From Neoechinorhynchus agilis (taxonomy: Eukaryota; Animalia; Acanthocephala): 64,000 nt of DNA. The notes under the pieces were generated by a model. It worked only from the letters and a program-made list of their open reading frames with translations, was not told where the DNA came from and made no database searches. How positions within the stretch are numbered: the first letter of the stretch is position 1; each line of letters opens with the position of its first letter. This document shows, piece by piece, positions 25,072 to 53,450 of the stretch. The stretch spans positions 7,572,691-7,636,690 of the forward strand of contig CM121342.1 of the NCBI GenBank assembly GCA_051530055.1, read 5' to 3'. The translations under genes were made by a program, and so were the position numbers.

Positions 25072-25758
25072 TTACTTCCTTCTTCTTTTATTTTGTTTTG
25101 CTAAATCTGGATTGTACTGCCAACTGTTTCGCCCCATTTCATGGAGCTCACTACTCTCCCTTGAAGGGATCTGATACCCCAAAGCCCTTGCGACCAAATG
25201 TTGCGCTTTTTTCTTCTCTTCAGATTCCCTAAGATGCCGCTCTTTTCGAAGTTCATCGATAGTGCACGGCGATTTCAAGACATGTTGGTCAAATCCACGT
25301 TCTTGTTCATTTAAATTGTAACATTTCATTGTGTAGAGAGGATCGTCGCGTCTTTTCCATTTCAAATCGCGCTCTTCGTCAATTAAAGGATCTTCCTTAA
25401 TTCTCTTACGGGTATACCAGGGTCGAGCAACATTATTATTGTCCCTGACAGATTGACCAAGATAAGTGAGAACACCTAATTTCTTTTCAAAATTGTCAGT
25501 GGCGTCCTTCAACTCTTTTTGAAGTTCTTTGTTTGGTAGAAGACCTGGATCAAACAACTCGACTCGACCTTTTGTTGTGGATTGCGAGGCGTCTTCTGCT
25601 TTCTCAGACAAACATAGATTTCTGGCTTCCTGATCAGCCAAAATCTTCCTTTTTTCCAAGTTCTGCTCAAGAATAGCAGCCTCCCGCTCATCTCGACGAA
25701 CACGTGCGATGTTTGCTTTGGTTCTAACGTGCCATCGCTTCTTCGGTAGAATGTTCAT
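25072..25758 (-). CDS. LENG1: Leukocyte receptor cluster member 1 homologue (Cir_N domain)
   Basis: N-terminus MNILPKKRWHVRTKANIARVRRDE, internal EKKLGVLTYLGQS, C-terminal QYNPDLAKQ. Confidence 0.9.
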   Translation of the reverse strand: MNILPKKRWHVRTKANIARVRRDEREAAILEQNLEKRKILADQEARNLCLSEKAEDASQSTTKGRVELFDPGLLPNKELQKELKDATDNFEKKLGVLTYLGQSVRDNNNVARPWYTRKRIKEDPLIDEERDLKWKRRDDPLYTMKCYNLNEQERGFDQHVLKSPCTIDELRKERHLRESEEKKKAQHLVARALGYQIPSRESSELHEMGRNSWQYNPDLAKQNKRRRK

Positions 25759-25899
25759 TCAATAACCGCGAGATATCTAAAATCAATCGAAATCTCGGTC
25801 GATAGAGTTGGAGATGCGGCTATCATAATCCCTCGGGGAGATATTTCGAAAAAGGAAGCCTTGCCAGACATTGTTTTGCAAGTGCCATAATAAGCTCAC

Positions 25900-28800
25900 T
25901 CGCTGGTTATTAAAAGACGTTCCTAAAACGTCTTGGTGAAGACCTAAATAACACTTTTAATCATATTAACCGTTACCTTCTCAGGTACCAACATTTTCAC
26001 ATCGATTGAAATATTTCGCTTCGTCAGTCTTTTAAAAATATTTTAGTTGTTTTCTATTGCATGGCTCGGGTTTTTAAAAGGCTTTTGAGCGAAATATCTC
26101 AATAAATATATATTTAGAAGTGTTGTTTAGAAATCTTCACCCGGTAAAGAGTTTATTAAAGACGTTCAGTGAACGTCTTCGGGTTCATCATCAGTTCGCT
26201 GGTTATTAAAAGACGTCCCAAAAACGTCTTGGTGAAGACCTAAATAACACTTTTAATCATATTACCCGGTACCTTCTCATGTACCGACATTTTCACATCG
26301 ATTGAGATATTTCGCTTCGTCAGCCTTTTAAAAATATTTTAGTTGTTTTGTATTGCATGGCTCGGTTTTTAAAAGACTTTTGTAGCGAAATATCCAAGTT
26401 CAGTGAACGTCTTCGGGTTCATCATCAGTTCGCTGGTTATTAAAAGACGTCCCAAAAACGTCTTGGCGAAGACCTAAATAACACTTTTAATCATACCGGT
26501 ACCTTCTCAGGTACCGACATTTTCACATCGATTGAAATATTTCGCTTCGTCAGTCTTTTAAAAATATTTTAGTTGTTTTGTATTGCATGGCTCGGGTTTT
26601 TAAAAGACTTTTGTAGCGAAATATCGCAATAAATATATATTTAGAAGTGTTGTTTAGAAATCTTCACCCGGTAAAGAGTTTATTAAAGACGTTCAGTGAA
26701 CGTCTTCGGGTTCATCATCAGTTCGCTGGTTATTAAAAGACGTCCCTAAAACGTCTTGGTGAAGACCTAAATAACACTTTTAATCATATAATCCGGTACC
26801 TTCTCAGGTACCGACATTTTCACATCGATTGAGATATTTCGCTTCGTCAGTCTTTTAAAAATATTTTAGTTGTTTTGTATTGCATGGCTCGGGTTTTTAA
26901 AAGACTTTTGTAGCGAAATATCGCAATAAATATATATTTAGAAGTGTTGTTTAGAAATCTTCACCCGGTAAAGAGTTTATTAAAGACGTTCAGTGAACGT
27001 CTTCGGGTTCATCATCAGTTCGCTGGTTATTAAAAGACGTCCCAAAAACGTCTTGGCGAAGACCTAAATAACACTTTTAATCATATAATCCGGTACCTTC
27101 TCAGGTACCGACATTTTCACATCGATTGAGATATTTCGTTTCGTCAGTCTTTTAAAAATATTTTAGTTGTTTTGTATTGCATGGCTCGGGTTTTTAAAAG
27201 ACTTTTGTAGCGAAATATCTCAATAAATATATATTTAGAAGTGTTGTTTAGAAGTCTTCACCCGGTAAAGAGTTTATTAAAGACGTTCAGTGAACGTCTT
27301 CGGGTTCATCATCAGTTCGCTGGTTATTAAAAGACGTCCCAAAAACGTCTTGGTGAAGACCTAAATAACACTTTTAATCATATAACCCGGTACCTTCTCA
27401 GGTACCGACATTTTCACATCGATTGAGATATTTCGCTTCGTCAGTCTTTTAAAAATATTTTAGTTGTTTTGTATTGCATGGCTCGGGTTTTTAAAAGACT
27501 TTTGTAGCGAAATATCTCAATAAATATATATTTAGAAGTGTTGTTTAGAAATCTTTAACCGGTAAAGAGTTTATTAAAGACGTTCAGTGAACGTCTTCGG
27601 GTTCATCATCAGTTCGCTGGTTATTAAAAGACGTCCCAAAAACGTCTTGGCGAAGACCTAAATAACACTTTTAATCATATAATCCGGTACCTTCTCAGGT
27701 ACCGACATTTTCACATCGATTGAGATATTTCGCTTCGTCAGTCTTTTAAAAATATTTTAGTTGTTTTGTATTGCATGGCTCGGGTTTTTAAAAGACTTTT
27801 GTAGCGAAATATCTCAATAAATATATATTTAGAAGTGTTGTTTAGAAATCTTCACCCGGTAAAGAGTTTATTAAAGACGTTCAGTGAACGTCTTCGGGTT
27901 CATCATCAGTTCGCTGGTTATTAAAAGACGTCCCAAAAACGTCTTGGTGAGACCTAAATAACACTTTTAATCATATTACCCGGTACCTTCTCAGGTACCG
28001 ACATTTTCACATCGATTGAGATATTTCGCTTCGTCAGTCTTTTAAAAATATTTTAGTTGTTTTGTATTGCATGGCTCGGGTTTTTAAAAGACTTTTGTAG
28101 CGAAATATCTCAATAAATATATATTTAGAAGTGTTGTTTAGAAGTCTTCACCCGGTAAAGAGTTTATTAAAGACGTTCAGTGAACGTCTTCGGGTTCATC
28201 ATCAGTTCGCTGGTTATTAAAAGACGTCCCGAAAACGTCTTGGCGAAGACCTAAATAACACTTTTAATCATATAATCCGGTACCTTCTCAGGTACCGACA
28301 TTTTCACATCGATTGAGATATTTCGTTTCGTCAGTCTTTTAAAAATATTTTAGTTGTTTTGTATTGCATGGCTCGGGTTTTTAAAAGACTTTTGTAGCGA
28401 AATATCTCAATAAATATATATTTAGAAGTGTTGTTTAGAAATCTTCACCCGGTAAAGAGTTTATTAAAGACGTTCAGTGAACGTCTTCGGGTTCATCATC
28501 AGTTCCTGGTTTTAAAAGACGTCACGTTCAGTGAACGTCTTCGGGTTCATCATCGTTGTCTGGTTATTAAAAGACGTCCCGAAAACGTCTTGGTGAAGAC
28601 CTAAATAACACTTTTAATCATATTACCCGGTACCTTCTCAGGTACCGACATTTTCACATCGATTGAGATATTTCGCTTCGTCAGTCTTTTAAAAATATTT
28701 TAGTTGTTTTGTATTGCATGGCTCGGGTTTTTAAAAGACTTTTGTAGCGAAATATCTCAATAAATATATATTTAGAAGTGTTGTTTAGAAGTCTTCACCC

Positions 28801-31560
28801 GGTAAAGAGTTTATTAAAGACGTTCAGTGAACGTCTTCGGGTTCATCATCAGTTCGCTGGTTATTAAAAGACGTCAAAAACGTCTTGGCGAAGACCTAAA
28901 TAACACTTTTAATCATATTACCCGGTACCTTCTCAGGTACCGACATTTTCACATCGATTGAGATATTTCGCTTCGTCAGTCTTTTAAAAATATTTTAGTT
29001 GTTTTGTATTGCATGGCTCGGGTTTTTAAAAGACTTTTGTAGCGAAATATCTCAATAAATATATATTTAGAAGTGTTGTTTAGAAATCTTTAACCGGTAA
29101 AGAGTTTATTAAAGACGTTCAGTGAACGTCTTCGGGTTCATCATCAGTTCGCTGGTTATTAAAAGACGTCCCGAAAATGTCTTGGCGAAGACCAAAAATA
29201 ACACTTTTAATCATATAATCCGGTACCTTCTCAGGTACCGACATTTTCACATCGATTGAGATTTTTCGTTTCGTCAGTCTTTTAAAAATATTTTAGTTGT
29301 TTTGTATTGCATGGCTCGGGTTTTTAAAAGGCTTTTGCAGCGAAATATCTCAATAAATATATATTTAGAAGTGTTGTTTAGAAATCTTCACCCGGTAAAG
29401 AGTTTATTAAAGACGTTCAGTGAACGTCTTCGGGTTCATCATCAGTTCGCTGGTTGTTAAAAGACGTCCCAAAAACGTCTTGGTGAAGACCAAAAATAAC
29501 ACTTTTAATCATATAATCCGGTACCTTCTCAGGTACCGACATTTTCACATCGATTGAGATATTTCGTTTCGTCAGTCTTTTAAAAATATTTTAGTTGTTT
29601 TGTATTGCATGGCTCGGGTTTTTAAAAGACTTTTGTAGCGAAATATCGCAATAAATATATATTTAGAAGTGTTGTTTAGAAGTCTTCACCCGGTAAAGAG
29701 TTTATTAAAGACGTTCAGTGAACGTCTTCGGGTTCATCATCTGTTGTCTGGTTATTAAAAGACGTTCCTAAAACGTCTTGGTGAAGACCTAAATAACACT
29801 TTTAATCATATAATCCGGTACCTTCTCAGGTACCGACATTTTCACATCGATTGAGATATTTCGTTTCGTCAGTCTTTTAAAAATATTTTAGTTGTTTTCT
29901 ATTGCATGGCTCGGGTTTTTAAAAGACTTGTAGCGAAATATCTCAATAAATATATATTTAGAAGTGTTGTTTAGAAGTCTTCACCCGGTAAAGAGTTTAT
30001 TAAAGACGTTCAGTGAACGTCTTCGGGTTCATCATCAGTTCGCTGGTTGTTAAAAGACGTCCCAAAAACGTCTTGGTGAAGACCTAAATAACACTTTTAA
30101 TCATATTACCCGGTACCTTCTCACGTACCGACATTTTCACATCGATTGAGATATTTCGCTTCGTCAGCCTTTTAAAAATATTTTAGTTGTTTTGTATTGC
30201 ATGGCTCGGGTTTTTAAAAGACTTTTGTAGCGAAATATCTCAATAAATATATATTTAGAAGTGTTGTTTAGAAGTTCAACGCCGGTAAAGAGTTTTCTTT
30301 TCTTTTCTTTTCTCTCTCTTCTTATTAAAGACGTTCAGTGAACGTCTTCGGGTTCATCATCTGTTGTCTGGTTATTAAAAGACGTTCCTAAAACGTCTTG
30401 GTGAAGACCTAAATAACACTTTTAATCATATAACCCGGTACCTTCTCAGGTACCGACGTTTTCACATCGATTGAGATATTTCGCTTCGTCAGTCTTTTAC
30501 TTTTTAAAATATTTTAGTTGTTTGTATTGCATGGCTCGGGTTTTTAAAAGACTTTTGTAGCGAAACATCGCAATAAATATATATTTAGAAGTGTTGTTTA
30601 GAAGTCTTCACCCGGTAAAGAATTTATTAAAGACGTTCAGTGAACCTCGTCGGGTTCATCATCACTTCGCTGGTTATTAAAAGACGTCCCAAAAACGTCT
30701 TGGTGAAGACCTAAATAACACTTTTAATCATATTACCCGGTACCCTCTCATGTACCGACATTTTCACATCGATTGAGATATTTCGCTTCGTCAGCCTTTT
30801 AAAAATATTTTAGTTGTTTTGTATTACATGGCTCGGGTTTTTAAAAGACTTTTGTAGCGAAATATCTCAATAAATATATATTTAGAAGTGTTGTTTTGAA
30901 GTCTTTAACCGGTAAAGAGTTTATTGAAAACGTTCAGTGAACGTCTTCGGGTTCATCATCAGTTCGCTGGTTGTTAAAAGACGTCCCAAAAACGTCTTGG
31001 CGAAGACCTAAATAACACTTTTAATCATATTACCCGGCACCTTCTCAGGTACCGACATTTTCACATCGATTGAGATATTTCGCTTCGTCAGTCTTTTAAA
31101 AATATTTTAGTTGTTTTGTATTGCATGGCTCGGGTTTTTAAAAGACTTTTGTAGCGAAATATCTCAATAAATATATATTTAGAAGTGTTGTTTAGATGTC
31201 TTCACCCGGTAAAGAGTTTATTAAAGACGTTCAGTGAACGTCTTCGGGTTCATCATCAGTTCGCTGGTTGTTAAAAGACGTCCCAAAAACGTCTTGGCGA
31301 AGACCTAAATAACACTTTTAATCATATTACCCGGCACCTTCTCAGGTACCGACATCGATTGAGATATTTTCGAGCTTCGTCAGTCTTTAAAAAATATTTT
31401 AGTTGTTTTGTATTGCATGGCTCGGGTTTTTAAAAGACTTTTGTAGCGAAATATCTCAATAAATATATATTTAGAAGTGTTGTTTAGAAATCTTTTTAAC
31501 CGGTAAAGTTTATTGAAAACTGATGATGAATGCTAGGAGGTTCACAGAACGTCTTCAAAA
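25900..31560. repeat. Satellite array, 297-bp unit, about 19 copies, rich in palindromes
   Basis: CGCTGGTTATT recurs at 26724, 27021, 27318, 27615, 27912 (period 297); a few units are truncated. Confidence 0.97.
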
Positions 31561-33099
31561 ACTCTACAGCGCGAAGACTTCTAAACAATTAGTCTACATC
31601 CGATTCTTTCGTTTTTTGTTTAATACGCAAATGTTGCCTCTGTTCGTACTTTTAATACGAAACGAGCTTGCGTTTTCTTGATCTGCTCATCGGCGCGAGC
31701 GATAAAATGGTATTTTATCCAATAATCATGGGTAAGTGTACAAGGCGATTGGTACTTGAGGAATGATCGATAGAGAAATCTGATTGGTAGGGCTTTGAAT
31801 GGTTTCTTAACCAATTATTCTCTGTTGTTATCGCCATAGCGGAGTCACTTATTTAAACTGTATTTACCCGAATGATCCGTCTTAGATATCGGATTGACCC
31901 AATCAGACATGAAGAAACGGACCGCTTAGGGGTCATTTTCAAAATTTGACCCTATCGAGTTATCGCCAATCGGGGATGGTTGCACGCGATAAAACCCTGG
32001 ATCTAAGGACTTCGTGTCTATTGTTTTTGAAAGATTGGAATCGTTAACATTGGTTAGAATCGACGAGATCTTTTCTATTTAATCAATTTGGTTCCTCCCC
32101 CCCCGTAATCTTCTTCAACTCGAAGACTGGTTTCGTCTTAGTATCAACCTAGACATTCAACGTTCATTCCCGGAAACTGGTAATCTCAGGTCCATGATAG
32201 TCGTTGCTTTTGGGAGTTTATTAGACTGTTAGTCGCATGATGTCATGATAATAAGATTGGAATCAGCTGTCGATTAAATTTTATTTTGCCGACAGAAACT
32301 CGAGATTTAAGTTTAACCCTCCAACTGTTGTTGAAGTTTCACATTTCCGCCATTCATTAGCTGCTGACGCGTCATCGATTTGTCCTTGTAAACGTCTAAA
32401 GGTTACCCGGATCTGAACAGCGATGATTCCAGTAGTTGTCTTGCGAAGAATGTGGACCTGTTTCGTTCAAATAAAACAGCACAATTATGTATACGATTCC
32501 ACCCTAAAGTTCGTTAAGCTTTAAAGCGTAAAATTTGCTAGAAAATCTTTAATACTGAGAAAGGATAATTGTTTCACCATAAATTATTGCTATAATGTAC
32601 TTTCACTATTCGTTTACCATTAAATTGATAGAGCGCCATGTAGATTTCCAACTCATAAATAGAGCTTTGGGCGATTGCTTTTTTAAATTTAGTAACTGTT
32701 TCTCTGTAGTCACTTTCTGTTTTGATCGTAAGGATGCCAGAATTTGAGCGAAAGGTATTTTTTCCATAGTGACACATTTCAATGAGCGATGCTTGGGTCA
32801 AGTCTCACTTTCAGTCTGAGGACCTTTCGCTTTTTGAGTCTCGATCATAGCTGCGCGTTCAGACGACGCCTTCGTTAAACCACCGCTCTTTTTTTCGATA
32901 TTTCAATTGTCATTTAACCTTTATAATACGTTCATTTTATTGGTCAAAAAGCTATTACTTTCACAGTAAATTAATCCGTTTTTTTTGTATTAGATCATTT
33001 AATCCCGAACGATGTTAGACCTAACAAAGAAAAGTTATAAGTTGCGTATAATATCAAGTAGTGCCAGTAAAGACTTCAAAACTAATAAAAAATTCTTCA

Positions 33100-33230
33100 G
33101 ACATTCTTCAAATAAGAATTGTGGTGAATCCCCACTATCACGGGTGCGTCGACTACGATATTGCCTACGTAGGTGAAACAACGAATCTACTGATGCCACT
33201 CATGAACATCGTGCCATAAGTGCAAACGTG
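33100..33230 (+). mobile_element. Penelope-like GIY-YIG endonuclease fragment
   Basis: DIAYVGETTNL...HEHRA (YVGET at 33166-33180). Confidence 0.55.
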
Positions 33231-33350
33231 TCGAATGTAATTGCATCTTTACTTATAAGACTCGACAAATGCCCTCGCTCAATTCGATTTCATTGATGGG
33301 TTCCCGTTCTATTTTCTATCGATGATTGTTCAAATAATTGCATTTTGAAG

Positions 33351-34163
33351 CTATATTTTCCCAAAGAAGTTCCGTCTCAGTCTAAAAGCTAACCTTGGGT
33401 TGAATTCTTCGTGGTCTACAAAGCCCGTTTGCCTCATCTTGTCGAACTCCTCTTTTACAGTAGCCCAGTCCGCTAGCGGAAGCAAATGCAGCTGACTTCC
33501 TGCCATCAACTCTGCCATCCCTTCTTGCCATGAACAACCAAGGAGGAGCACTAGGTTGGTTACTGCGGTGACTCCCATGCCCGATTGAGCCACCAACACC
33601 TCTGCTAACAACTCTCTTCTTTCAGGAAAAGTTCGAATGAAGCATTTAACCGCGGATGTCAAAGATAGTTTCACTTTTGTGTCGTACCCTTGTGGTGGAT
33701 CGTCAAACTCACTTTTCACCGCCTCCGGCAAATGTTCGAGATCGCGTAAAATGCGCAGCCAGGCCTCCGGCGCTAACCCACAATTATGCTTCCTCCGCTC
33801 CGCTCTCGCTATTGTTGCACGCATCCTGGCTCCCGTCCAGTCAGAATGCCCTTCCTTGCGCTTGTCCCCAAATACAAACAGATCCGGAGATAGCACGCTC
33901 CTTATTGCTTCTCTGCAACACTCGGGTCGTCGACTCAGAATGCCCCTCGCCGCCGTGAACCCTTCTTTGAGGGTCCGATGTTTAGCGTAGACGAACTGGA
34001 GGCTGCATCCGCACCCTCCACAGCTCGCTCTTCGCCCAGACCCGCCATCGCTGCCACCGGTGGTGGACTTGCAGTTGTCTCCCGAGCCCTGGACTCTCTC
34101 GACTTGGCCCGGGTGACGGGGGGAGAGACCCGTCCCGCCAAAGAAGTCCCAGACAGAAAACCC
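33351..34163 (-). pseudogene. EVE ORF2 remnant: N-terminal part of a toti-like RdRp, truncated before the catalytic motifs
   Basis: PPQGYDTKVKLSL..FPERRELLAEVLVAQSGMGVTAVTNLVLLLG..EFDKMRQTG..FRLRR resembles the pre-palm region of toti-like RdRps as I recall it; no GDD motif is present. Confidence 0.6.
34157..34163 (-). promoter_or_regulatory. Putative -1 ribosomal frameshift heptamer G GGU UUU
   Basis: The 0 frame is that of ORF 33935..34141 and the -1 frame is that of ORF 33351..34589; a GC-rich stem-forming sequence starts 6 nt downstream. Confidence 0.6.
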
Positions 34164-37100
34164 TGGTCCTGGGACGTTTCTTGCCCAACACCGCGTCACT
34201 GGCCGTCGCCCTTGATCCTTCATCCAACGGCGGTACTCTGCCACATCTAATACGGGCGTGTGTTTTAAGGCCTCCGCTGCTCCTTCCAATGCCCGAACTG
34301 CCTGTCCCTGTAACAACTTGGTCTGCGAGTTTGGTGCCAACCACTTGATTGATCTTAGACTTCTGGCCATAGCTCTCGTTGCTCGTGCTCGTTGATCCAT
34401 GCCAATGGGTCGTATCGCGTCTAGCCACTTCGCCGTGAACAAGGTGGTCTGTATCGTCCGTTCCGCCAAGCCTCTAGCCTCATCCTCTGTTGCTTCCAAG
34501 CCCCTTGGCAGTGTTGTCATTCGTAAGGCTTGAATCAATTCAGCGGGCGCCTTCCGTGTTTTCGAGCACTTCCAACTGAATTTCCTCAAAAGAGATCGTT
34601 TGCCCTACTCCTTCCTTGTCTTCTAGCGCAGCTGCTCCTTCTAAGTTGGGATTGGGGCCTTCCTGGGGGCGGTCCGCTGTTTGAATCCTCTTCTTCCTCC
34701 TCTGGCAATTCAGGTTTTGGCTGGGGTGGTGCAGCCGTTGTTGCTGCTATCACATGCGTCGGTGATTCTGGTGCCGGTGTCTCATGCCTTTCAATGATTT
34801 GTTTGAGTGAGTCCCCGAGTGGCTGCAGCATATTCTGCTTCTGGCCAGCTGTTCGTTTCTGAGGAGGAGCTGGTGGAACATCCTGGTCGCCCTTACGCCG
34901 GTGCGGCCGATTTGGTCCAAATGCTGGAGGTGGGGCGAAGGTGTCCCAGGGGCCGGGCATTGCGGTTGCGTGCGCGGCACCGTGCATCGCACATACCCAT
35001 TTCTCCGCTCTGCCGAAGCATTTGAAGAGATGGAGCTGCTGTAGCGTGTCGTACAATGTTGGCACGCGCACCAACAAGGTGTCTACATGTCCGCAGCCCA
35101 CGTAACTGGATGGGATATAGGGCACGAACCTTAGCTAGAAGTCGTCCCTATTGGGTTGCGCTTGTGCCAAATACTCCGACCGGCCTGAGTCGGACCAGGT
35201 TCGCCTATATTGCAGAGCCGTGCCTATGGCCTGTAATGCGAGGTTGGCTAGCCTCGCATCGTAGCCGTGGACTGCCTTTACCGTCACCCATTTTCCCGCT
35301 ACGCGCTCTGCATTTTCAACACTAAATCCTTCCAAGACTATCTTCGAGGATGAGATGTGAGGAGTCGCCATTCCCAACATTGCCACCAAATGCTAGGGCA
35401 GATAGCTTGCCCAATCGGTCGTGTCGTCCACTTGGGTTCTCAAGTGGACCCCACCAGAGGTTGGTCCACCCAAAGTGGTAGCAGATCCGCGAATAGATAT
35501 CCCACAGCTCTGCTGCAGGAAGGATCAGCTCCTCTAAGTCGTATTCCGTGTCTAGTAGCCTACTGTAGGCAATCAGAGGATTATTCACGTTGGGCCAGGC
35601 CGTTTTCCCAAGCAGCATGTCCCTGAATGGGAACTCCGGCGACGCAGCAAGGCCCACTGCTGCCAACACCGTCCGAGGGTCTCCAACTTCCGATGGCACA
35701 TAGATAACGTCACTTCGTCCCATCATTGCCTGTATGAGAGGATCACCATGGGCCTGACTGTTATTCACGTTGAGCCACCTCAGGGTTCGTGCCCACCCTA
35801 GACGCCGTTCAATCCTCGCTCCCGCCTCTCACAAAGCTTGGGCACAGTAAACCGCCGCCATGCGCATCACGAATCTCTCTGGTTGGACCTTCCTGCTCAT
35901 TAATGTCTTGATCGCTTTTGCATGCCCAGGCTGGTAGTCCTGCGCCCTTACACCTCCTACGAATTGACTCGTGTTCTTTAACGCCTGTAGCCACGCTCCG
36001 TCACGCACAATGTCTGTTAATCCAGAACACATCTCCAGTAGCGCCAAGGTGGGTATTCGTTCGTGCTCCTTCCTGCGCTCTGATATCTACACTGAATCCC
36101 CTCTCTGACCGTTGAGAACCTCACCTCAATATCCCTGTATCGACTGCAGCCATATATGCAAATCATCCCCTAACTTTCCCATTCCCAACTGGGCTCAACC
36201 ATTGGAAGAAGTTCTCCCCGAGTGTTCACCCTGAGGTTCCCTGTCCCTGTCCAGAACATAGCAATCATCTTCTGGCCCAGCTTCCGGCACCTCATCCATT
36301 TCATCGACATCTATTCCCAGCTCCTGTTTTGCGAATTGCTCCTGGTAATCATCCGGTAGCCCGTCGTCCTCATATACATCATGGGGGCTATGGAGTGCAG
36401 ATTTGGACAATAATGAGTGAGCGACCACTCCAGGTGAAACCTGCCGTGGTCAAGGTGGTATAGTGCCGAGAGCGAATCGCCATTAGGCCTGAATCCATAC
36501 CTATAGCGATCGCCCGTTATCAGAGTCACTACCTGGTGTGGGTAGTCAACCGGTCCAGAGTATGGGTGGAGTGGTACATCCGGTAGGCCGTGCATGCTTG
36601 CGGTGGGCAGCGTCCTCTCCTGGACGAGCAGAGCGTATTCCACTCCGACCACGTGATGTATACTGGCGATTGCATTCAATCTCTTGGTATCTGGCAACTC
36701 CCAGTACATAACCATATTCCCGTCCTTGCAAAGTTCTCGCACAGCCCTCTGGCAAGGTTGGGAACCAACCGAGAAGATCATACGATAAGATTCTAAAGTT
36801 ACGTGCGATTTTAGCTTGTCTAAGGAAAGTGCTTGGCAGGTTCGTTGAAAATGTGGTGGCGAGGTGTTTCCCAACGGCTCCTTTATACCCTAGATCATTC
36901 AGATTTTTATTGATTCGAGGGCGGGTATACAACAGCCCATAATCCTTTAGCGACCACTGGACCATGTCAGCCGAAAAGTCAATGAGAAGGGCTGACATCG
37001 TCGCCTCAATCACTAAATCATGTGCCATGCATGGCCCTACCACTGACACTAGCTGCTCCGCCGTGTCCCGGTACTGCAACAGTGGGCACATCAAGTACCC

Positions 37101-37318
37101 ACGCATTGCAGCCTTCGGCAAAGCGATCGTGAGGTTAGTGGTCCCAAAGACTAGGTGCCCCGGCCTCCCGTATACACCTGCACCGCCTGCAAGAAGATGT
37201 CCTGCCGAGCGAAGCGGTGACACCAGATCATAGCCGTCTCGAATATCATGTTAGCTGACGTTGTCAGCTCACCGATCCTATCTACTTCCGCTGTCGATCT
37301 ACCTCCTCGATCAGCCTA
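34164..37318 (-). pseudogene. EVE ORF1 remnant (capsid-like protein with Pro/Ala-rich C-terminal region), split over several frames
   Basis: Segments SANMIFETAMIWCHRFARQDIFLQAVQVY / LALPKAAMRGYLMCPLLQY-like / AWPNVNNPLIAY..AAELWDIYSRICYHFGW / PAPPQKR..APPQPKPE continue across single frame changes. Confidence 0.55.
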
Positions 37319-37324
37319 CTCAAT

Positions 37325-38273
37325 GTGCTGTCACCACTTCGTTTTAATATTTTCCTAAACAACTTCAAACATCTCTCCTCTCACTTTGAACCCTTCTTAT
37401 ACGGCGACGATGTCACCCTCATCACTCAATCACCACCCACCTCTCTCTTTCTTTAACTTCTAACGAAATCAAACGCATAAAAGATTTCTGCACCAATCAC
37501 AAACTCTACCTTAATTTCTCCAAATGCTTCAAAATGATCATCTCTCTTGCGCATCTTCACATCATCTCATGAGCTTCTAAATGACATCCTACGCGTCACC
37601 TACCTAAGAATTGTGGGTCTCCGATTTCAATCAAATTAGAAATGGGACTCGCGAATCACTCTCTCCCTAAAGCACAACGCCTTTAAAATTGATCTCCTCA
37701 AACGCCTCCAACATTTAGGAATCCCTTCACCCGATCTCTACAAATTTTACTTCTGCTTTATCTTACCATCCCTCACCTACGGTTTTCTCGTATTTTGCAA
37801 CCATTCCAAATCTCAAGTCCGTCGTCTTGAAATGTTTCATAAAATAGCATCTAAAATTTGTACAATTTTTCCCCCTCTCACCGAATGCCTTGATACTATT
37901 TTCAACGCCTCTCAATCCTACCATCACAATTTCGTCAACATATCGCCTCCTTTTCAATCGAGTACAACACTCGTAATCCTAATTCGTTTCACCCTCCCTC
38001 AACCTCGCACCTCCCTATACCTACGCTCCTTTTTCCATACTGCCCAATCTTCTCGGATATCAGAACTTGAAATGAACCTGAGGAAAGACTTACCTTACAA
38101 GCGCTCCTGCAAACAATAAACACCAATTGCCACCAAAATGGAGACCTTCCAAACCAACCGGATATTACCACCCGCCGGCACTCTTAATCCACTCCAAAAT
38201 CAATAGTCATCTCATTTTCCAATCAGAACTCGAGTGTTTATGAGGATCCGACAAATAAAACTTGTTATTATTA
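37325..38273 (+). mobile_element. 5'-truncated LINE (CR1/L2-like): RT C-terminal half plus 3' end
   Basis: VLSPLRFNIFLNN, FLYGDDVTL, KLYLNFSKC, LLKRLQHLG..LYKFYFCFILPSLTYG; ends in AATAAA (38254) and TTATTATTA (38265-38273). Confidence 0.85.
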
Positions 38274-38367: not shown

Positions 38368-38593
38368 AATAAAGACAGCACACAATCGTATGTCTAAATA
38401 TCGAATTTAATAAATAAAGCATCTGAAAACTTTGATAAAGACGACACACAATCGTATGCCGAAATATCGAATTTAATAAAGTATCTGAAAACTTTGATAA
38501 AGACGGCACACAATCGTATGCCGAAATATCGAATTTAATAAATAAAGTATCTGAAAACTTTGATAAAGACGGCACACAATCGTATGCCGAAAT
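38368..38593. repeat. Minisatellite, 62-66 bp unit, about 3.4 copies
   Basis: CACACAATCG at 38379, 38445, 38507, 38573. Confidence 0.9.
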
Positions 38594-38608
38594 AAGTTGT
38601 TCATGAAT

Positions 38609-39370: not shown

Positions 39371-41272
39371 ATGCCAAAAGGACCTGCGATTGGAATCGAT
39401 CTCGGCACGACATACTCTTGCGTTGCTGTGTTTCAGCACGGCAAGGTTGAAATAATTGCAAACGATCAAGGCAATCGAACCACACCGTCATATGTGGCAT
39501 TTACAGATTCAGAGCGATTGATTGGTGACGCAGCCAAGAATCAAGTAGCTCTTAATCCTACTAACACTGTATTTGATGCGAAACGATTGATTGGTAGGCG
39601 ATTCCAAGATTCCAGCGTACAATCTGATATGAAACATTGGCCATTTAAGGTGCTCAACGATGGCGGAAAACCAAAAGTTCAAGTTGAGTATAAAGGAGAA
39701 TTAAAGGCGTTTTATCCAGAGGAAATATCGTCGATGGTATTGACCAAAATGAAGGAAATTGCAGAATCGTATTTGGGAAGGAAGATTACGGACGCCGTTG
39801 TAACAGTGCCTGCTTATTTCAACGATAGTCAACGCCAGGCGACAAAAGACGCAGGTATGATTGCTGGTCTTAATGTTCTTCGGATTATCAACGAACCAAC
39901 TGCAGCTGCTATTGCTTATGGATTGGACAAAAAAGTGACTGGTGAAAAAAACGTATTGATTTTTGATCTTGGAGGTGGCACATTTGATGTCAGCGTACTT
40001 TTGATTGAAGATGGAATTTTTGAAGTTAAATCGACTGCTGGGGATACTCACTTGGGCGGTGAAGACTTTGACAATCGTATGGTTGAACATTTCGTAAACG
40101 AATTTAAACGGAAAACGAAAAAAGATATAAGTGTTAACAAAAGAAGTCTTCGTCGTCTTAGGACTGCTTGTGAACGAGCAAAACGAACACTTTCTTCATC
40201 GACCCAAGCAAGCATTGAAATAGATTCTCTTTTTGAAGGAGTAGATTTTTACACGAGTATAACCCGTGCTCGGTTTGAAGAACTAAACGCAGATTTGTTT
40301 AGAAGTACACTGGATCCGGTTGAAAAAGCTCTGAGAGATGCGAAGTTAGACAAAGGAAGGATTGATGATATCGTGCTCGTTGGTGGTAGTACTCGGATTC
40401 CAAAGATACAGAAACTATTAAGGGAATTCTTTAACGACAAAGAGTTGAACAAAAGCATTAATCCCGACGAGGCTGTTGCATATGGAGCTGCTGTTCAAGC
40501 TGCAATTTTAACAGGTGATAAAAGTGAAGCGGTTAAAGACCTTCTCTTGTTAGATGTTGCCCCATTGTCATTGGGTATTGAAACGGCCGGTGGAGTTATG
40601 ACCGCTCTTATTAAACGCAACACTACCATTCCAACCAAACAATCACAGACTTTCACAACCTATTCCGATAATCAGCCAGGAGTATTGATTCAGGTTTATG
40701 AAGGGGAAAGAGCTATGACTCGAGATAATAATCTATTAGGCCGCTTTGAACTTACTGGGATTCCACCAGCACCGAGAGGTGTTCCACAAATTGAAGTTAC
40801 TTTTGATATTGACGCAAATGGGATCATGAACGTTTCTGCGGTTGACAAGAGCACAGGAAAGCAAAATCGGATTACGATTACCAATGATAAAGGTCGACTA
40901 AATAAAGACCAAATCGATGCTATGGTAAGGGACGCGGAAAAGTATAAACAAGATGATGAACGAGAAAGGGAACGTATAGACTCTAAAAACAAACTTGAGA
41001 ATTATTGCTATTCAATAAAGCAGACGGTTGAAGATGACAAAGTGAAGAGCAAATTAAGTTCTAGTGATTTGGATACAATTAGATCAAAAGTGACTGAAAG
41101 CTTGAAGTGGCTTGAAGGCAATCAGAGTGCAGAGAAAGATGAGTATGAACATCAGTATCGAGAAATGGAACGAGTTTGCAGTCCACTCATGACCAAAATG
41201 TATCAACAAGGAGGCCATGGCGGCCCCACTGATGGCAGTGGTGGAGGGCCTACCATTGAAGAAGTTGACTAA
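39371..41272 (+). CDS. hsp70: Cytosolic Hsp70, intronless (inducible type)
   Basis: [22 protein letters not shown] and [15 protein letters not shown] signatures; C-terminal GPTIEEVD. Confidence 0.99.
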
Positions 41273-41297
41273 TAATGATAGTAAGGCAAACTAATTC

Positions 41298-42650
41298 AAA
41301 ATAAAACCATCTCCAACTCTTTTCTCGGTCTACAATGAAGCGAAATAAGGAACCGGATCTTTTTTTATGAACGTCGCTTAATGTAGATATTTTTATAGGC
41401 ATACTTTTAAATCTAAACTCGATCGCAGTAAGAGAAATGCATCCAAATCATTGTTTGTAACAAAAGGAGATAAAATAATTTAAAAATAAAACCATCTCCA
41501 ACCCTTTTCTCGCTTTAATATCAAGCGAAATAAGGAAACGGGTCTTCTCAATGAACGTAACTTATTGTAGATATTTTTATAGGCATATTTTTAAATCTAA
41601 ACTCGCTAGCAGTAAGAGAAATGCGTCCGAATCATTGTTTGTAACAAAAGGAGATAAAATAATTTAAAAATAAAACCATCTCCAACTCTTTTCTCGGTCT
41701 AAAATCAAGCAAAATAAGGAAACGGGTCTTTTCAATGAACGTCGTTTAATGTGGATATTTTTTATAGGAATACTTTTAAATCTATACTCGATCGCAGCAA
41801 GAGAAATGCGTCCGAATCATTGTTTGTAACAAAAGGAGATAAAATAATTTAAAAATAAAACCATCTCCAACTCTTTTCTCGGTCTAAAATCAAGCAAAAT
41901 AAGGAAACGGGTCTTTTCAATGAACGTCGTTTAATGTGGATATTTTTTATATGCATACTTTTAAATCTAAACTCGATCGCAGTAAGAGAAATGCGTCCAA
42001 ATCATTGTTTGTAACAAAAGGAGATAAAATAATTTAAAAATAAAACCATCTCCAACTCTTTTCTCGGTCTAAAATCAAGCAAAATAAGGAAACGGATCTT
42101 TTCAATGAACGCCGTTTAATGTGGATAATTTTTTATATGCATACTTTTAAATCTAAACTCGATAGCAGTAAGAGAAATGCGTCCAAATCATTGTTTGTAA
42201 CAAAAGGAGATAAAATAATTTAAAAATAAAACCATCTCCAACTCTTTTCTCGGTCTAGAATCAAGCAAAATAAGGAAACGAATCTTTTCAATGAACGCCG
42301 TTTAATGTGGATAATTTTTTATATGCATACTTTTAAATCTAAACTCGATCGCAGTAAGAGAAATGCGTCCAAATCATTGTTTGTAACAAAAGGAGATAAA
42401 ATAATTTAAAAATAAAACCATCTCCAACTCTTTTCTCGGTCTAGAATCAAGCAAAATAAGGAAACGAATCTGTTCAATGAACGTCGTTTAATGTAGAAAT
42501 TTTTTTATATGCATACTTTTAAATCTAAACTCGATCGCAGTAAGAGAAATGCGTCCAAATCATTGTTTGTAACAAAAGGAGATAAAATAATTTAAAAATA
42601 AAACCATCTCCAACTCTTTTCTCGCTTTAATATGAAGCGAAATAAGGAAA
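41298..42650. repeat. Tandem array, 184-186 bp unit, about 7 copies, starting in the hsp70 3' region
   Basis: AAAATAAAACCATCTCC recurs about every 185 bp from about 41299 to about 42594. Confidence 0.97.
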
Positions 42651-43188
42651 GATTCAATCACTTCCCTGATTCTGAGAGATCGGTTTGGCTGTGTGCCTAA
42701 AAAGGAAAAGAGCCGATTGAGGAACGTTGTCCTACAGAATAATGTACCATCGGCTGGATTCATGAAAAGTCAACAAATCAATGAGGGGAAGTCATTTGGA
42801 AGTCCTCAAAGTCAAAATGCACCTTTCCCTTTACGACAGCATTCTGATTTTGCTAATTTTTCTTCTTAAACTATTACAAATTCTTTGCTGATCAAAATGC
42901 TTTACGATTTCCCGTGATTATTTCTATTCTAAGTAACGGGTATGAGCTGCGCTAAGTGTGCGTGATTGTCTATTTTTAAATACTAATTCGCAGAAGTTGA
43001 AGACGGTACTCCTTTGAATCGTCTAACAATGGGTTTTAGTTTAACAGAGTTTAAGATTAAACATGGACTTCAATCATGGAACTCATGATGTTTCAGAACC
43101 GTTTTCAACTACTCATCTTTCGCACCGTATCTGACTCACCGACTTTGCTGTTTAGTTTATTTAGTCTTGCGCTTCTCCATTAACACTT

Positions 43189-45189: not shown

Positions 45190-47090
45190 TTTAGAATTTT
45201 TATATGTAGCGCCAAAGATTTGGGTCTGGGAAGCGCTGGTATGCGCTCAGTGCTCCAAGACCGTACGGTAAATGAGTTTGTAAGAATCCCTCTGGATTCT
45301 CCGATATCTCCCGAGGAGGTGGGACTCAGTGAGTTTCCTCCCTTCAGCAAGCAATTTCGTTCCTTTTGATGTGCGTCTTTGGTGGTAACGGATTTGAACC
45401 CGTTGACCCTTAGCTGGGACTCGGAGCATTAGTCCACTTGACCACCTCAACACACTACGGAATGTACAAACTTCGCCACTTTAGCCTGGATAAGCCTTCG
45501 GATTTTATTAGAATTTTTAAATGTGGCTCAGCCGGTAGTCTTTTGATTAGATATTTTCTTTCCATACACGGCCGAATGGACACCCGCAGTCCACCGATTC
45601 ATTGGTCTGGGAAGCGCTCGTCTGCGCTCAATGCCCCAAGACCGTACGGTAAATGAGTTTGTAAGAATCCCTCTGGATTCTCGATATCTGAAGCGGGACT
45701 CATCAGTGAGTTTCCTCCTTCAGCAAGCAATTTCGTTCCTTTTGATGTGCGTCTTTGGTGGTAACGGATTGAACCCGTTGACCTACTGGGACTCGGAGCA
45801 TTAGTCCACTTGACCACCTCAACACTACGGAATGTACAAATTCGCCACTTTACTGGATAAGCTTCGATTTTTAGAATTTTTAAATGTGGCTCAGCCGGTA
45901 GTCTTTTGATATTTTCTTTCCATACACGCCGAATGGACACCCGCAGTCCACCATCATTGGTCTGGGAAGCGCTCGTCTGCGCTCAATGCCCAAGACCGTA
46001 CGGTAAATGAGTTTGTAAGAATCCCTCTGGATTCTCCGATATCTCCCGAGGAGGCGGGACTCATCAGTGAGTTTCCTCCCTTCAGCAAGCTATTTCGTTC
46101 CTTTTGATGTGTCTTTGGTGGTAACGGATTAGAACCCGTTGACCCTTAGCTGGGACTTGGAGCATTAGTCCACTTGACCACCTCAACATACTACGGAATG
46201 TACAAACTTCGCCACTTTATCCTGGATAAGCTTTCCGATTTTATTAGAATTTTTAAATGTGGCTCAGCCGGTAGTCTTTTGATTAGGTATTTTCTTTCCA
46301 TACACGGCCGAATGGGCACCCGCAGTCCACCTATCCATTGGTCTGGGAAGCGCTCGTCTGCGCTCAATGCCCCAAGACCGTACGGTAAATGAGTTTGTAA
46401 GAATCCCTCTGGATTCTCCGATATCTCCCGAGAAGCCGGGACTCATCAGTGAGTTTCCTCCATTCAGCAAGCAATTTCGTTCCTTTTGATGTGCGTTTTT
46501 GGTGGTAACGGATTTGAACCCGTTGACCCTTAGCTGGGACTCGGAGCATTAGTCCACTTGATCATCTCAAAACACTACGGAATGTACAAAATTCGCCACT
46601 TTATCCTGGATAAGCTTTCCGATTTTATTAGAATTTTTAAATGTGGCTCAGCCGGTAGTCTTTTGATTAGATATTTTCTTTCCATACACGGCCGAATGGG
46701 CACCCGCAGTCCACCTATCCATTGGTCTGGGAAGCGCTCGTCTGCGCTCAACGCTCCAAGACCGTACGGTAAATGAGTTTGTAAGAATCCCTCTGGATTC
46801 TCCGATATCTCCCGAGGAGGCGGGACTCATCAGTGAGTTTCCTCCATTCAGCAAGCAATTTCGTTCCTTTTGATGTGCTTTTTTGGTGGTAACGGATTTG
46901 AACCCGTTGACCCTTAGCTGGGACTCGGAGCATTAGTCCACTTGACCACCTCAACACACTACGGAATGTACAAACTTCGCCACTTTGGCTTGGATGAGCT
47001 TTCCGATTTTTTTAGAATTTTTATATGTGGCTCAGCCGGTAGTCTTTTGGTTAGATATTTTCTTTCCATACACGGCCGAATGGACACCAG
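45190..47090 (-). repeat. Tandem array, about 384-bp unit, 5 copies, each a tRNA-like head plus hammerhead-like module
   Basis: CCGTACGG at 45261, 45642, 45996, 46378, 46762. Box A TGGTCAAGTGG (45434-45444) and box B GGTTCAAATCC (45390-45400). CTGATGA at 45700, 46061, 46443, 46827; it is deleted in the first unit. Confidence 0.92.
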
Positions 47091-47427
47091 CTTTTTTTTG
47101 CAATTAATGTGTTATTTTTCGTTACATTTTATATCCTTGACTTCAAAGAGTATGTGAATTAGCTTTCTTTTGAGAATAAATTATATTCTTAAATTTATAG
47201 CAATATTAATTTTTGTGTTCTATATTAAGCATCTTACAAAAAATATGTTTAGAATCCACCCTTATGGAAATATTTTCTTATCGCAAATCCATAATCGGAA
47301 GGCCCGACAAAACCCAACAAAAATCATTTAGCATTTGCGGAAAAATCCCAAGAACAGTGGTGGTCTTTGATTTGAATGTGGCAAATGAGCATTCAAGGAA
47401 ATCTTACTTGATTTGAAAGGCACTTCT

Positions 47428-49978: not shown

Positions 49979-50029
49979 ATATGTATGAAACAAGAAAAAG
50001 TCGGAATGCTGATATGGTCAAAATCTTTT

Positions 50030-52270
50030 TTATAAAAATCCCAAGTCTCTACGATGAGTTTTAAAAATCATTTCAATGTATGTGTGAAATTCGAACTGAA
50101 AGTTTGCAATGAAAACGTTAAGGTTTTGCTCGCAAACCCGTGAATCTGAGTTTTAAATTTTTGACAAATTTTTCACTTTTTAAAGGGGAGGAGGAAAGCA
50201 ACAATTTATCATTTCTCTGCTATTTTAAAAGATCTTTTTTTGTTGTTTTTTCTCAAGATTTCCTTTAAAAGGATTTTTCAAAGCGAAAATCATAAATTTT
50301 TACGATGAGTGCAAAAGATTATTTCAATGAATTTGTGAAATTCGAGATGCGACCTAAAAGTTTACAATGTGAGTTTTAAATTTTTGACAATTTTTTAATT
50401 TTTTAAAGGGGAGCAGGAAAGCAACAATTTAACAATACTCTACGATTTGAAAAGATTTTTTTTGTTTTCCAAGCGAAAATCATAAATTTCTACGATGAGT
50501 TTTAAAAATCATTTCAATGTATGTGTGAAATTCGAACTGAAAGTTTGCAATGAAAACGTTAAGGTTTTGCTCGCAAACCCGTGAATCTGAGTTTTAAATT
50601 TTTGACAAATTTTTCACTTTTTAAAGGGGAGGAGGAAAGCAACAATTTATCATTTCTCTGCTATTTTAAAAGATCTTTTTTTGTTGTTTTTTCTCAAGAT
50701 TTCCTTTAAAAGGATTTTTCAAAGCGAAAATCATAAATTTCTACGATGAGTGCAAAAGATTATTTCAATGAATTTGTGAAATTCGAGATGCGACCTAAAA
50801 GTTTACAATGTGAGTTTTAAATTTTTGACAATTTTTTAATTTTTTAAAGGGGAGCAGGAAAGCAACAATTTAACAATACTCTACGATTTGAAAAGATTTT
50901 TTTGTTTTCCAAGCGAAAATCATAAATTTCTACGATGAGTTTTAAAAATCATTTCAATGTATGTGTGAAATTCGAACTGAAAGTTTGCAATGAAAACGTT
51001 AAGGTTTTGCTCGCAAACCCGTGAATCTGAGTTTTAAATTTTGACAAATTTTTCACTTTTTAAAGGGGAGGAGGAAAGCAAAAATTTATCATTTCTCTGC
51101 TATTTTAAAAGATCTTTTTTTGTTGTTTTTCTCAAGATTTCCTTTAAAAGGATTTTTCAAAGCGAAAATCATAAATTTTTACGATGAGTGCAAAAGATTA
51201 TTTCAATGAATTTGTGAAATTCGAGATGCGACCTAAAAGTTTACAATGTGAGTTTTAAATTTTTGACAATTTTTTAATTTTTTAAAGGGGAGCAGGAAAG
51301 CAACAATTTAACAATACTCTACGATTTGAAAAGATTTTTTTTCCAAGCGAAAATCATAAATTTCTACGATGAGTTTTAAAAATCATTTCAATGTATGTGT
51401 GAAATTCGAACTGAAAGTTTGCAATGAAAACGTTAAGGTTTTGCTCGCAAACCCGTGAATCTGAGTTTTAAATTTTTGACAAATTTTTCACTTTTTAAAG
51501 GGGAGGAGGAAAGCAAAAATTTATCATTTCTCTGCTATTTTAAAAGATCTTTTTTTGTTGTTTTTTCTCAAGATTTCCTTTAAAAGGATTTTTCAAAGCG
51601 AAAATCATAAATTTCTACGATGAGTGCAAAAGATTATTTCAATGAATTTGTGAAATTCGAGATGCGACCTAAAAGTTTACAATGTGAGTTTTAAATTTTT
51701 GACAATTTTTTAATTTTTTAAAGGGGAGCAGGAAAGCAACAATTTAACAATACTTTACGATTTGAAAAGATTTTTTTCCAAGCGAAAATCATAAATTTCT
51801 ACGATGAGTTTTAAAAATCATTTCAATGTATGTGTGAAATTCGAACTGAAAGTTTGCAATGAAAACGTTAAGGTTTTGCTCGCAAACCCGTGAATCTGAG
51901 TTTTAAATTTTTGACTAATTTTTCACTTTTTAAAGGGGAGGAGGAAAGCAACAATTTATCATTTCTCTGCTATTTTAAAAGATCTTTTTTTTGTTGTTTT
52001 TTCTCAAGATTTCCTTTAAAAGGATTTTTCAAAGCGAAAATCATAAATTTCTACGATGAGTGCAAAAGATTATTTCAATGAATTTGTGAAATTCGAGATG
52101 CGACCTAAAAGTTTACAATGTGAGTTTTAAATTTTTGACAATTTTTTAATTTTTTAAAGGGGAGCAGGAAAGCAACAATTTAACAATACTCTACGATTTG
52201 AAAAGATTTTTTTTCCAAGCGAAAATCATAAATTTCTACGATGAGTTATAAAAATTATTTCAATGAATTT
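50030..52270. repeat. Satellite, 434-441 bp dimeric unit (about 250 + 190 bp related subunits), 5 copies
   Basis: CTACGATGAGTT at 50049, 50490, 50930, 51364, 51799, 52236; the second subunit starts TACGATGAGTGC (about 50300). Confidence 0.95.
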
Positions 52271-53450
52271 GTGAAATTCGAGTAAAACACTTAAACAGTT
52301 CCTGAATTCGACTCAAAAATCCATCAGTATTTCGCATGAATGGAAAAAAGGTCAAAAAGTGAAGAAAAGCTTAACGTTTTCATGAGTTGATTGAATTTAC
52401 CCTCAAAATTTTTAATGTAAAGTAATCATTACGTTTATTTTTCCTTTTACAATAATAAAGTACAAAACGTGCAATCACCACCGTCCGCAAAATTGGAGCT
52501 TTTCTCCTTCTTCGGCTGTCGCTATCACGCTAGCGGCATTGCCTCGTTACGAGCAAAACAATTGGGATGATATATATCCACGAGAAAATGCAGAAAGCAT
52601 AAGACTCTGCTTGTATAAATTCCATTTGTAAATGATAGCGACAGCCGGGGAAGCAGAGAAGCTAAGATTTCGCTGACGGTGGTGATTGCACGTTTCATGC
52701 TTTATTATTGTAAGATTTATTAGATTCCCTAAAAAATAGAGATTATGCAAATTTTATGCGTCACTCGGAAGAATCGCGATTGATGACGTCGAGGAGCATT
52801 GAATATGAATGCGATTGGAAGCGAAGAAATCGTTTTTTCCCACGGTTTTCTTGTCCGTAGTTTCTGCTTGAGAGACATTTTTATTAAAAAGTCTATCTTA
52901 AGATTCGTTATAGGTTTGGTGCGTTATAAACGCTTAAAGCGGTTCCTGATTTTGTATGTGGCGATGAGGAAAAAGTATATCAAAGGAAATTGAAATATTT
53001 CGTCCAATCACACTGGAATTCTTCAGTCAATTATCTGAAAATTAATTTGGCAACCTCAATGTCTTATCCGGAGGTATTCTCAACTTTAGGGAATATCCCT
53101 GAATGAACATGGCCTCGATAATAACACGGTCCGTAGTCAAAGAGTGGGAAACCACAGTGGAACTCGTGTCCTGTTTCTTCTTCCTGATTTTTCCTTAGTG
53201 ACTGAATTTCGATGTTGAACGAATTTGGGCGAGAAAAAATTTCTTTTTGGTGGTCATTTAGGCTATAATCAGCGAAAGAGTGCGTGTTGAAGTGTTCATT
53301 CGCCCAGGGTTGAAAGATACTTTCAATAATTTTGCCACAATTTATTTCAAAAATTTGCAAACAATTGACTGAAGAAAGCCAACGAAAAGGCCGAAAATTT
53401 TCAAGATAAATCTATTTTCTTAATCAAACATCGCTAATTGAAACTGAAAC

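Follow-up and report, generated by a model that had tools for sequence, protein, structure and literature searches.

What is a GC-rich block of about 4 kb doing in the AT-rich chromosome of a thorny-headed worm, and how many viruses left it there? The block occupies positions 33365-37318 of a window of 64,000 nucleotides (the whole stretch of DNA analysed) from the acanthocephalan Neoechinorhynchus agilis (contig CM121342.1 of assembly GCA_051530055.1, positions 7,572,691 to 7,636,690 of the forward strand). It is, almost certainly, an endogenous viral element (EVE) of toti-like (Ghabrivirales) type, integrated in the host chromosome as a single, decayed copy, and it is likely a mosaic of two segments from unrelated viruses and not one genome. 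An earlier note on this DNA had proposed an endogenised toti-like double-stranded RNA (dsRNA) virus of this host lineage, probably undescribed, with a capsid, a -1 frameshift as well as an RNA-dependent RNA polymerase (RdRp). Profile, structure and sequence matches to relatives bear this out, and the viral sequence comes from an undescribed toti-like lineage. The single virus genome fragment of about 4 kb envisaged in the same note is not supported, as the upstream 1.1 kb is probably a second, unrelated capsid that lies behind a patch of repeat.

A viral island in host DNA

The composition of the island sets it apart, with a GC fraction of 0.539 across 33365-37318 against 0.363 in the remaining window. 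Likelihood change points of GC fall near 33422 and near 37341, and GC is at most 0.431 in every other 3954-nt stretch of the 64-kb window, in agreement with the sharp bounds described earlier. The genes of the window are those of an animal (Hsp70, tropomyosin, NAT10, tudor and MFS). The long frames of the island lie on the minus strand, and the viral frames among them carry at least five frame changes, as judged by homology, and in-frame stops at 35831 and 35137. Together with missing blocks, these frame changes and stops record decay after integration, and the element is unlikely to be a working gene. What had been described as one minus-strand coding path broken by frame changes is therefore broken as stated, but it is not a single path, with the repeat patch at 36158-36196 standing between capsids of different clades.

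Sequencing reads place the island in the genome. In run X8, of which about 12% was read, depth was 15.8 over the island (14 bins, patch bin excluded) and 16.2 over the flanks (10 bins), a ratio of about 1. Contigs bridge both host junctions, a check that had been called for: the left junction by contigs of runs X1 (32200-34022) and X3 (33203-33421), and the right by contigs of X1 (36167-37355) and X3 (34006-37355). The latter contig also spans the repeat patch, as does one of X2 (34034-37302). Between 77 and 92% of the sampled words were present in five runs of two studies, to which three raw-read runs of a third study under the same species label can be added. In several samples (studies P1, P2 and P3) the element is thus continuous with host DNA and has the copy number of the host genome, and no joint skipping the island was found among the joints listed in the runs examined. 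Runs X2-X5 can be called RNA only as a guess, and X2 and X3 also cover intergenic flanks.

Table 1. Parts of the mosaic element and the adjoining remnant, in window coordinates
Feature	Position	Strand	Basis or remark
Virus 1 RdRp open reading frame (ORF2), from slippery site to truncation	33365..34163	-	N-terminal domain only, without palm
-1 frameshift heptamer GGGTTTT	34157..34163	-	G-F-S follows in the -1 frame
Virus 1 conserved ORF1 C-terminal domain, now sharing an open frame with ORF2	34185..34541	-	ORF1 profile
Virus 1 Pro/Ala/Glu-rich low-complexity stretch inside ORF1	34600..34950	-	Translation; overlaps end of profile match 467-660
Virus 1 remains of the capsid, broken by stops and a frame change, ~150 profile positions missing	34950..36157	-	ORF1 profile
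Patch (~38 nt) of high-copy host repeat	36158..36196	+	Read depth, loose read ends
Virus 2 capsid C-terminal half and acidic linker, 5' side cut by the junction with the LINE (long interspersed nuclear element)	36197..37309	-	P0019 homology
LINE-like remnant, 5'-truncated, decayed, high-copy, head-to-head with viral sense	37310..38250	+	Depth, RVT_1

Two viral segments and their relatives

The left segment (virus 1) can be read against free relatives. Alignment-based scans yielded 130 loci, including 58 with an ORF1 of at least 600 aa ahead of an RdRp ORF, and an ORF1 profile built from 34 of these 58 ORF1s matched the window at 36023-35454 (independent E-value, iE, 2e-41), 35440-34781 (iE 5e-10) and 34511-34218 (iE 1e-7), values that apply to the six frames only. 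Because the third match falls at 34511-34218, the 417-aa frame that runs from 34604 to 33354 starts with ~140 residues that belong to ORF1 and not to the RdRp. The capsid of the window is 32% identical to the ORF1 of contigs L004/L005 (E 1e-32), and the ORF1 C-terminal domain is 28% identical to residues ~660-767 of the same ORF1s and 68-73% identical to the N. agilis gene models P0015/P0010. The capsid profile positions absent from the window fall near 35450-35400. The ORF1 C-terminal match is separated from the heptamer by 93 codons in L004/L005 and by 20 in the window, so that ~70 or more are missing. A structure model of the L005 capsid region (predicted local distance difference test, pLDDT, 81) had dsRNA-virus capsids for all seven of its PDB matches at E<=0.001, with L-BC and L-A leading. 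Its best match in BFVD came from Erysiphales associated totivirus 24, whose coat protein it resembles at 55% identity (template modelling score, TM, 0.88), and ORF1 can thus be assigned a capsid of the L-A fold by way of the relative L005. A Pfam scan of nine window pieces and the ORF1s of eight relatives detected no capsid or RdRp family, and sequence searches against PDB gave nothing relevant.

The layout of a long ORF1, a Pro/Ala-rich tail, a slippery heptamer and a second ORF was recognised in the earlier note, and this order stands with the heptamer at 34163, except that the Pro/Ala/Glu-rich stretch (about 34950-34650) is internal and is followed by the ORF1 domain at 34511-34218. GGGTTTT at 34163 precedes G-F-S-V-W and is homologous in position to the sites that relatives have as GGATTTT or GGGTTTT. 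The ORF1 (zero) frame stays open for 229 nt past the heptamer, to a stop at 33935, and the two ORFs therefore overlap at a slippery heptamer of the form XXXYYYZ. ORF1 and ORF2 overlap in 55 of the 58 relatives, a redundant set in which GGATTTT occurs in 37/58 and GGGTTTT in 2/58, and the residues after the heptamer are G-F-[S/W/F/C/Y]. Both GGAUUUU and GGGUUUU are given as totivirus frameshift sites in the available part of a published report (PMC8973213). Four other canonical heptamers (36872, 35609, 35297 and 33362) were rejected, as only 34163 fits both the position and the following residues in relatives, and the start of the 417-aa frame was rejected as the ORF1/ORF2 boundary, with no heptamer there. 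Folding 3' of the heptamer, in a tool without pseudoknots, brought out no stimulatory hairpin (z = +0.5 relative to shuffles), and four intact relatives gave little signal as well (-1.8 to +0.2).

A search with the 417-aa frame (7993 scored candidates of 731-2085 aa) returned a single match, P0001, a hypothetical protein of N. agilis with an RdRP_4 domain (E 1e-76). Residues 222-411 of the frame (33941-33372) align with P0001 48-237 at 126 of 190 identical positions (66%). The RdRP_4 domain of P0001 spans 318-603, beyond the part aligned to the window, and for that reason the RdRp of the window ends before the palm, as had been claimed. The piece that remains precedes the domain with the palm motifs; Pfam finds nothing in it, and it groups with RdRP_4 proteins. 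The ORF2 of virus 1 is 30% identical to that of L005 (E 8e-25). A HMMER scan of 1.84 billion representatives gave nine matches, six of them N. agilis gene models and three unnamed Logan/JGI proteins, and the best matches of P0001 in the ESM Atlas were Duplornaviricota RdRps at 0.97. As a single query against viral_contigs, P0001 found no locus. A FastTree phylogeny was built from 56 rows, namely 8 added sequences and the 48 ORF2s, out of 121, that were non-redundant and no shorter than 750 aa. In it the window clusters with P0001 (0.97), P0009 (0.95) and P0002 (1.00), and this group adjoins the environmental contigs L004/L007/L008 (0.80) in a clade that includes L081/L082 (1.00). The RQ.G and RR motifs, given in the earlier note as RdRp N-terminal patterns, are invariant in the alignment of relatives. 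Both the RdRp and capsid trees contain only unnamed contigs and N. agilis models, and the closest virus that has a name carries no classification below family-level labels. The parts available of two papers (PMC12063590 and PMC10459897) provided no family placement for the toti-like parts.

The right segment (virus 2) has other affinities. Across 37309-36197 the matches to the ORF1 profile are weak, collinear and confined to the middle of the profile (iE 7e-4 and 5e-4). A search with its read-through frame among proteins of 353-1124 aa found one protein, the N. agilis model P0019, which is 55-83% identical to the segment and reaches further upstream. Against the ORF1 profile, P0019 reaches 55.9 bits (iE 1e-19), with 2.3 bits for the top of 500 shuffles, and the ORF1s nearest to it (L045/L113, L109, L062, L120 and L114) differ from those nearest the left segment. 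When clade profiles were compared, P0019 scored 63 bits with clade Y, 13 with X and 1 with Z, and the left capsid piece scored 74 with X and 26 with Z, with Y not reported; these profiles hold 9, 4 and 14 sequences and are consequently of unequal sensitivity. An IQ-TREE phylogeny, which used 28 of 47 rows, placed the left capsid in clade X (support 99) and the right capsid in clade Y (support 82), and an approximately unbiased (AU) test rejected the two as one clade (p-AU 0.00085). The segment at 36197-37309 groups with L113/L114/L120/L104, apart from virus 1, and the capsid and RdRp of virus 1 fall in the same clade. The first match of a low-confidence P0019 model (pLDDT 53) was a ditolivirus protein (E 1.6e-8, 22% identity). 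The ESM Atlas matched P0019 only to GxGYxYP clusters, all below 0.9, and these were taken as noise. That the left and right segments derive from two different source viruses is, in our judgement, likely.

The island is not alone in the genome. Matching at 80% likeness brought in four further contigs of run X1, with depths of 82-140, that match parts of the island with ~19-20% differences. Within 34982-35085, 16 of 20 copy differences lie at third codon positions (p 2.5e-5), counted among the best-supported differences, beyond which 394 others occur. Because the differences are mostly at third codon positions, the ~80%-identical copies would have diverged as coding viruses before integrating separately, a pattern in the sequences pointing to repeated independent integrations of related viruses. 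The N. agilis EVE models hold at least two RdRp/ORF1 lineages besides virus 2, one of P0009/P0012/P0013, for which most matches to the window are ~37-43% identical, and one of P0001/P0010/P0011/P0015, for which most are ~66-73% identical. Several source viruses therefore stand behind these models. A paralogous EVE copy is also present on an X1 contig that matches 35671-35889 and 34048, where the capsid and frameshift regions are joined on opposite strands. In models P0004, P0011 and P0013, toti-like pieces at two loci are fused to a common, repeated ORF that does not look viral, which suggests EVEs embedded in another repeat.

The LINE-like remnant and the route of integration

The clearest clue to how the viral sequence entered the chromosome is a LINE remnant fused to the island, which the earlier note overlooked. 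Viral homology stops at ~37309 and the stretch from 37310 to 37324 is already LINE-like, so that LINE homology begins at most 15 nt from the viral end; the extent first given for the viral fragment, 33365..37318, describes the GC island and slightly overshoots the virus. Depth is ~49-fold that of the flank from ~37310 to 38250. Other copies of the LINE, seen as loose read ends, extend upstream of 37310 and read K-G-V-P-Q-G, which we take to be the start of the LINE reverse transcriptase (RT) motif, and short words of this upstream sequence are present at the joint between virus 2 and the LINE. Foreign sequence is thus joined directly to a 5'-truncated LINE, with the junction (37309-37324) inside the RT motif. 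The patch at 36158-36196 is bordered by loose read ends, left and right, in each of the four runs (in X8, 231 and 214 reads), and X8 depth at 36176 is 333 against ~16. A 38-nt match with at most 4 mismatches would be expected 4e-4 times by chance, if a 50-Mb genome is assumed. Its plus strand is C-rich and G-poor, as is the sense strand of the LINE, and the patch possibly comes from the same LINE family as the adjoining remnant. A 9-nt direct repeat (33353/37347) was rejected as a target-site duplication (TSD), as LINE homology reaches inside it, and insertion of a virus into a LINE was rejected, as the left flank is single-copy.

Toti-like viruses have no DNA stage, and therefore the cDNA must have been made by an RT of the host, which the abutting LINE likely supplied. 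We lean towards one LINE-driven event in a germ cell, during which the RT of this LINE copied viral RNA and jumped between templates. Starting from the left junction, a DNA end would have primed within the RdRp gene of the plus-strand RNA of virus 1, and copying would have proceeded towards the capsid of that virus and jumped, via the short repeat patch, to the RNA of virus 2, after which the viral cDNA would have been joined to truncated LINE cDNA. The opposite orientation of virus and LINE would be consistent with twin priming; alternatively, jumps onto viral minus strands would produce the same layout. Frames and large blocks would have been lost after integration. In the accessible parts of the literature on LINE chimeras, opposite orientation is ascribed to twin priming and same orientation to template switching (10.1101/2025.02.02.635956), and double jumps are documented (PMC2104539). 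Minus-strand reads are reported, in a source likewise available in part, to accumulate in ditoliviruses (PMC10868552). A fuller scenario is offered tentatively. Two unrelated dsRNA viruses would have infected the same germ cell, where a single retrotransposition captured both and left a four-part LINE/virus 2/LINE patch/virus 1 chimera, preserving a trace of jumps across multiple templates onto viral RNAs. The chimera would be one item in an archive, spread over the genome, of three or more undescribed toti-like lineages of acanthocephalans.

Several observations weigh against the LINE-driven event and the two-virus mosaic. No TSD was found, the longest word shared between the left junction and the LINE end being 7 nt, a length reached by 110 of 200 shuffles, and no poly(A) tail was seen, so that the TSD and 3' tail that mark a LINE chimera were not recovered here. 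Other LINE copies continue beyond 38246, for which reason the LINE 3' end may be lost, and age or this loss may explain the absent TSD and tail; the locus is accordingly not counted among the LINE chimeric insertions. The LINE family is abundant, as the ~49-fold depth indicates, making chance adjacency possible, and the plus frame of the remnant matches RVT_1 at E 0.023, below the Pfam cut-off. The patch is established as a high-copy repeat and its origin from the same LINE family only by inference, and the placement of virus 2 in the capsid tree is a long branch with a Shimodaira-Hasegawa-like approximate likelihood ratio (SH-aLRT) support of 82.

The lack of a TSD or tail is also what would be expected if the LINE, the virus 1 cDNA and the virus 2 cDNA had arrived at different times, through break repair with free cDNA or because a site next to a satellite array tolerates insertions, and had been united by later deletions. 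Such a history has the large internal deletions of the element in its favour, since flanking DNA may have been lost as well, along with the rearrangement of other EVE copies (the opposite-strand joint 34048/35889 in the X1 contig) and the 297-bp satellite array 1.9 kb away. It must also account for three joints (virus 1/patch, patch/virus 2 and virus 2/LINE) without recognisable unique host DNA between them, and for two viral pieces in one orientation with two non-viral neighbours of the same strand composition, and we regard it as somewhat unlikely. Considerably less probable is one virus with a very long ORF1 that carried two anciently diverged tandem capsid-like domains, into which the patch was inserted later. 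The segments do share a strand and a similar GC, their order is plausible (capsid half, acidic linker, capsid, ORF1 tail, heptamer and RdRp) and long ORF1s occur in some relatives (L129, 1751 aa; L120, 1392 aa), but none of the 58 relatives has two capsid-region matches in one ORF1 and the two domains fall in different single-capsid clades, so that recombination between distant viruses would be needed. The patch, moreover, sits exactly at the segment boundary, and P0019, the only protein found with the read-through frame among those of 353-1124 aa, covers the virus 2 segment alone. An assembly chimera or contamination by RNA-virus sequence might be suspected from a GC sharply unlike that of the host and from run X1, which may be the source of the assembly, yet it has next to no probability: the island is covered at flank depth by raw DNA reads that come from a different sample and study (X8, X7 and X6), the joints are bridged by contigs of studies P1 and P2, and the stops and frame changes are common to the runs.

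The surroundings of the element are rich in repeats. A tandem array of ~19 copies of a 297-bp unit occupies 25754-31500 and ends ~1.9 kb left of the EVE, and a flank segment at 33222-33298, ~70 nt from the left junction, has a low-copy paralogue elsewhere in the genome. On the other side, an intron-less hsp70 ORF (39371-41272, plus strand) lies ~2 kb from the EVE/LINE junction and is divergent from the viral sense, with a 66-bp tandem repeat (38369-38594) between hsp70 and the junction. Further intergenic tandem arrays lie at 41288-42800, 45255-47175 and 50020-52281, with periods of ~185, 384 and 436-441 bp, respectively. A tudor-domain ORF occurs twice on the minus strand (5077-5928 and 12320-13171), inside a ~7.2-kb direct duplication of near 100% identity, and a second duplication of ~4 kb involves ~18.9-20.8 kb and 22.9-24.8 kb; both are either recent duplications or assembly redundancy. 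A Gag-like zinc-knuckle ORF (15447-16235, minus strand) is followed by a broken frame at about 14900-15400 that resembles what we take to be the start of a LINE endonuclease, presumably the 5' part of another non-LTR element.

Viral fossils of acanthocephalans and known systems

Several 'hypothetical proteins' of N. agilis are viral fossils, and the element is likely part of a fossil record of viruses that infected these parasites. Judging by this locus and its paralogues, the germ line was exposed repeatedly to several toti-like lineages, and the sequences can be used as probes for living viruses. The enzyme behind the integration of non-retroviral RNA viruses is usually inferred just from nearby retroelements. 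Here viral sequence, probably from two sources, is fused base-to-base to a LINE cut within its RT, and the template-jump route by way of a LINE can therefore be tested through orthologous sites. The literature searched, which left most subscription papers outside its coverage, contained no toti-like EVE from Acanthocephala and no two-virus LINE chimera. In the N. agilis transcriptome paper (PMC12690905), as far as it was available, viruses appear in the references only, and one supplement file had 0 matches, the spreadsheets being outside the search.

The comparisons that follow rest, wherever a paper is cited, on the parts of it that were available. The viruses of thorny-headed worms are near-unknown, and a single report was found, on rhabdo-like EVEs in Pomphorhynchus laevis (PMC12548735). 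These Mononegavirales-like elements are likewise RNA-virus EVEs in an acanthocephalan, but they are negative-strand in type and lie on unplaced contigs with an uncertain origin, whereas the N. agilis element is of dsRNA type, has host genes on either side and is supported by reads. Among parasitic worms, the Ghabrivirales EVEs of Trichinella (PMC13483474) also derive from dsRNA viruses, sit near transposon-derived sequence and show repeated gain and loss; those on long scaffolds are single-gene pieces of ~500-640 bp with known cognate viruses, in contrast to the 4 kb found here, for which a free virus was not found. Toti-like EVEs are also known from planthoppers (ToEVEs; PMC10636211), where frameshifted capsid and RdRp fragments of 0.4-10.8 kb occur in large numbers per animal genome. 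The element described here differs from these in host phylum, in its two-clade mosaic and direct LINE joint, and in showing no sign of an intact co-opted ORF.

For the source viruses, the closest comparison to virus 1 is the group of Erysiphales associated totivirus 24 (unclassified Totivirus at NCBI) with contigs L004/L005/L007/L001 and P0002, which shares its capsid fold, sequence similarity and RdRp clade. This group has a ~5.2-kb two-ORF layout with GG(A/G)TTTT followed by G-F-S, as in virus 1, but RdRp identity to the free viruses is 26-36% over the overlap and the acanthocephalan copies form their own branch. The ditolivirus-like capsids (Bremia lactucae associated ditolivirus 1; PMC10868552) and L113/L114/L120 are the best matches of virus 2, both by sequence and by the low-confidence model, although virus 2 is very distant from them and has no RdRp in the window. 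The chimeric retrocopies of LINEs (U6/L1, tRNA/L1 and the tripartite MGL; PMC2104539, 10.1101/2025.02.02.635956) resemble the locus in carrying a foreign RNA copy at the 5' end of a truncated LINE, in antisense orientation and with more than one jump; they contain cellular RNAs and have TSDs, while the cargo here is viral and no TSD was found. Compared with known EVEs, the element is unusual in combining a mosaic structure with a direct LINE junction, in a host phylum that is poorly sampled.

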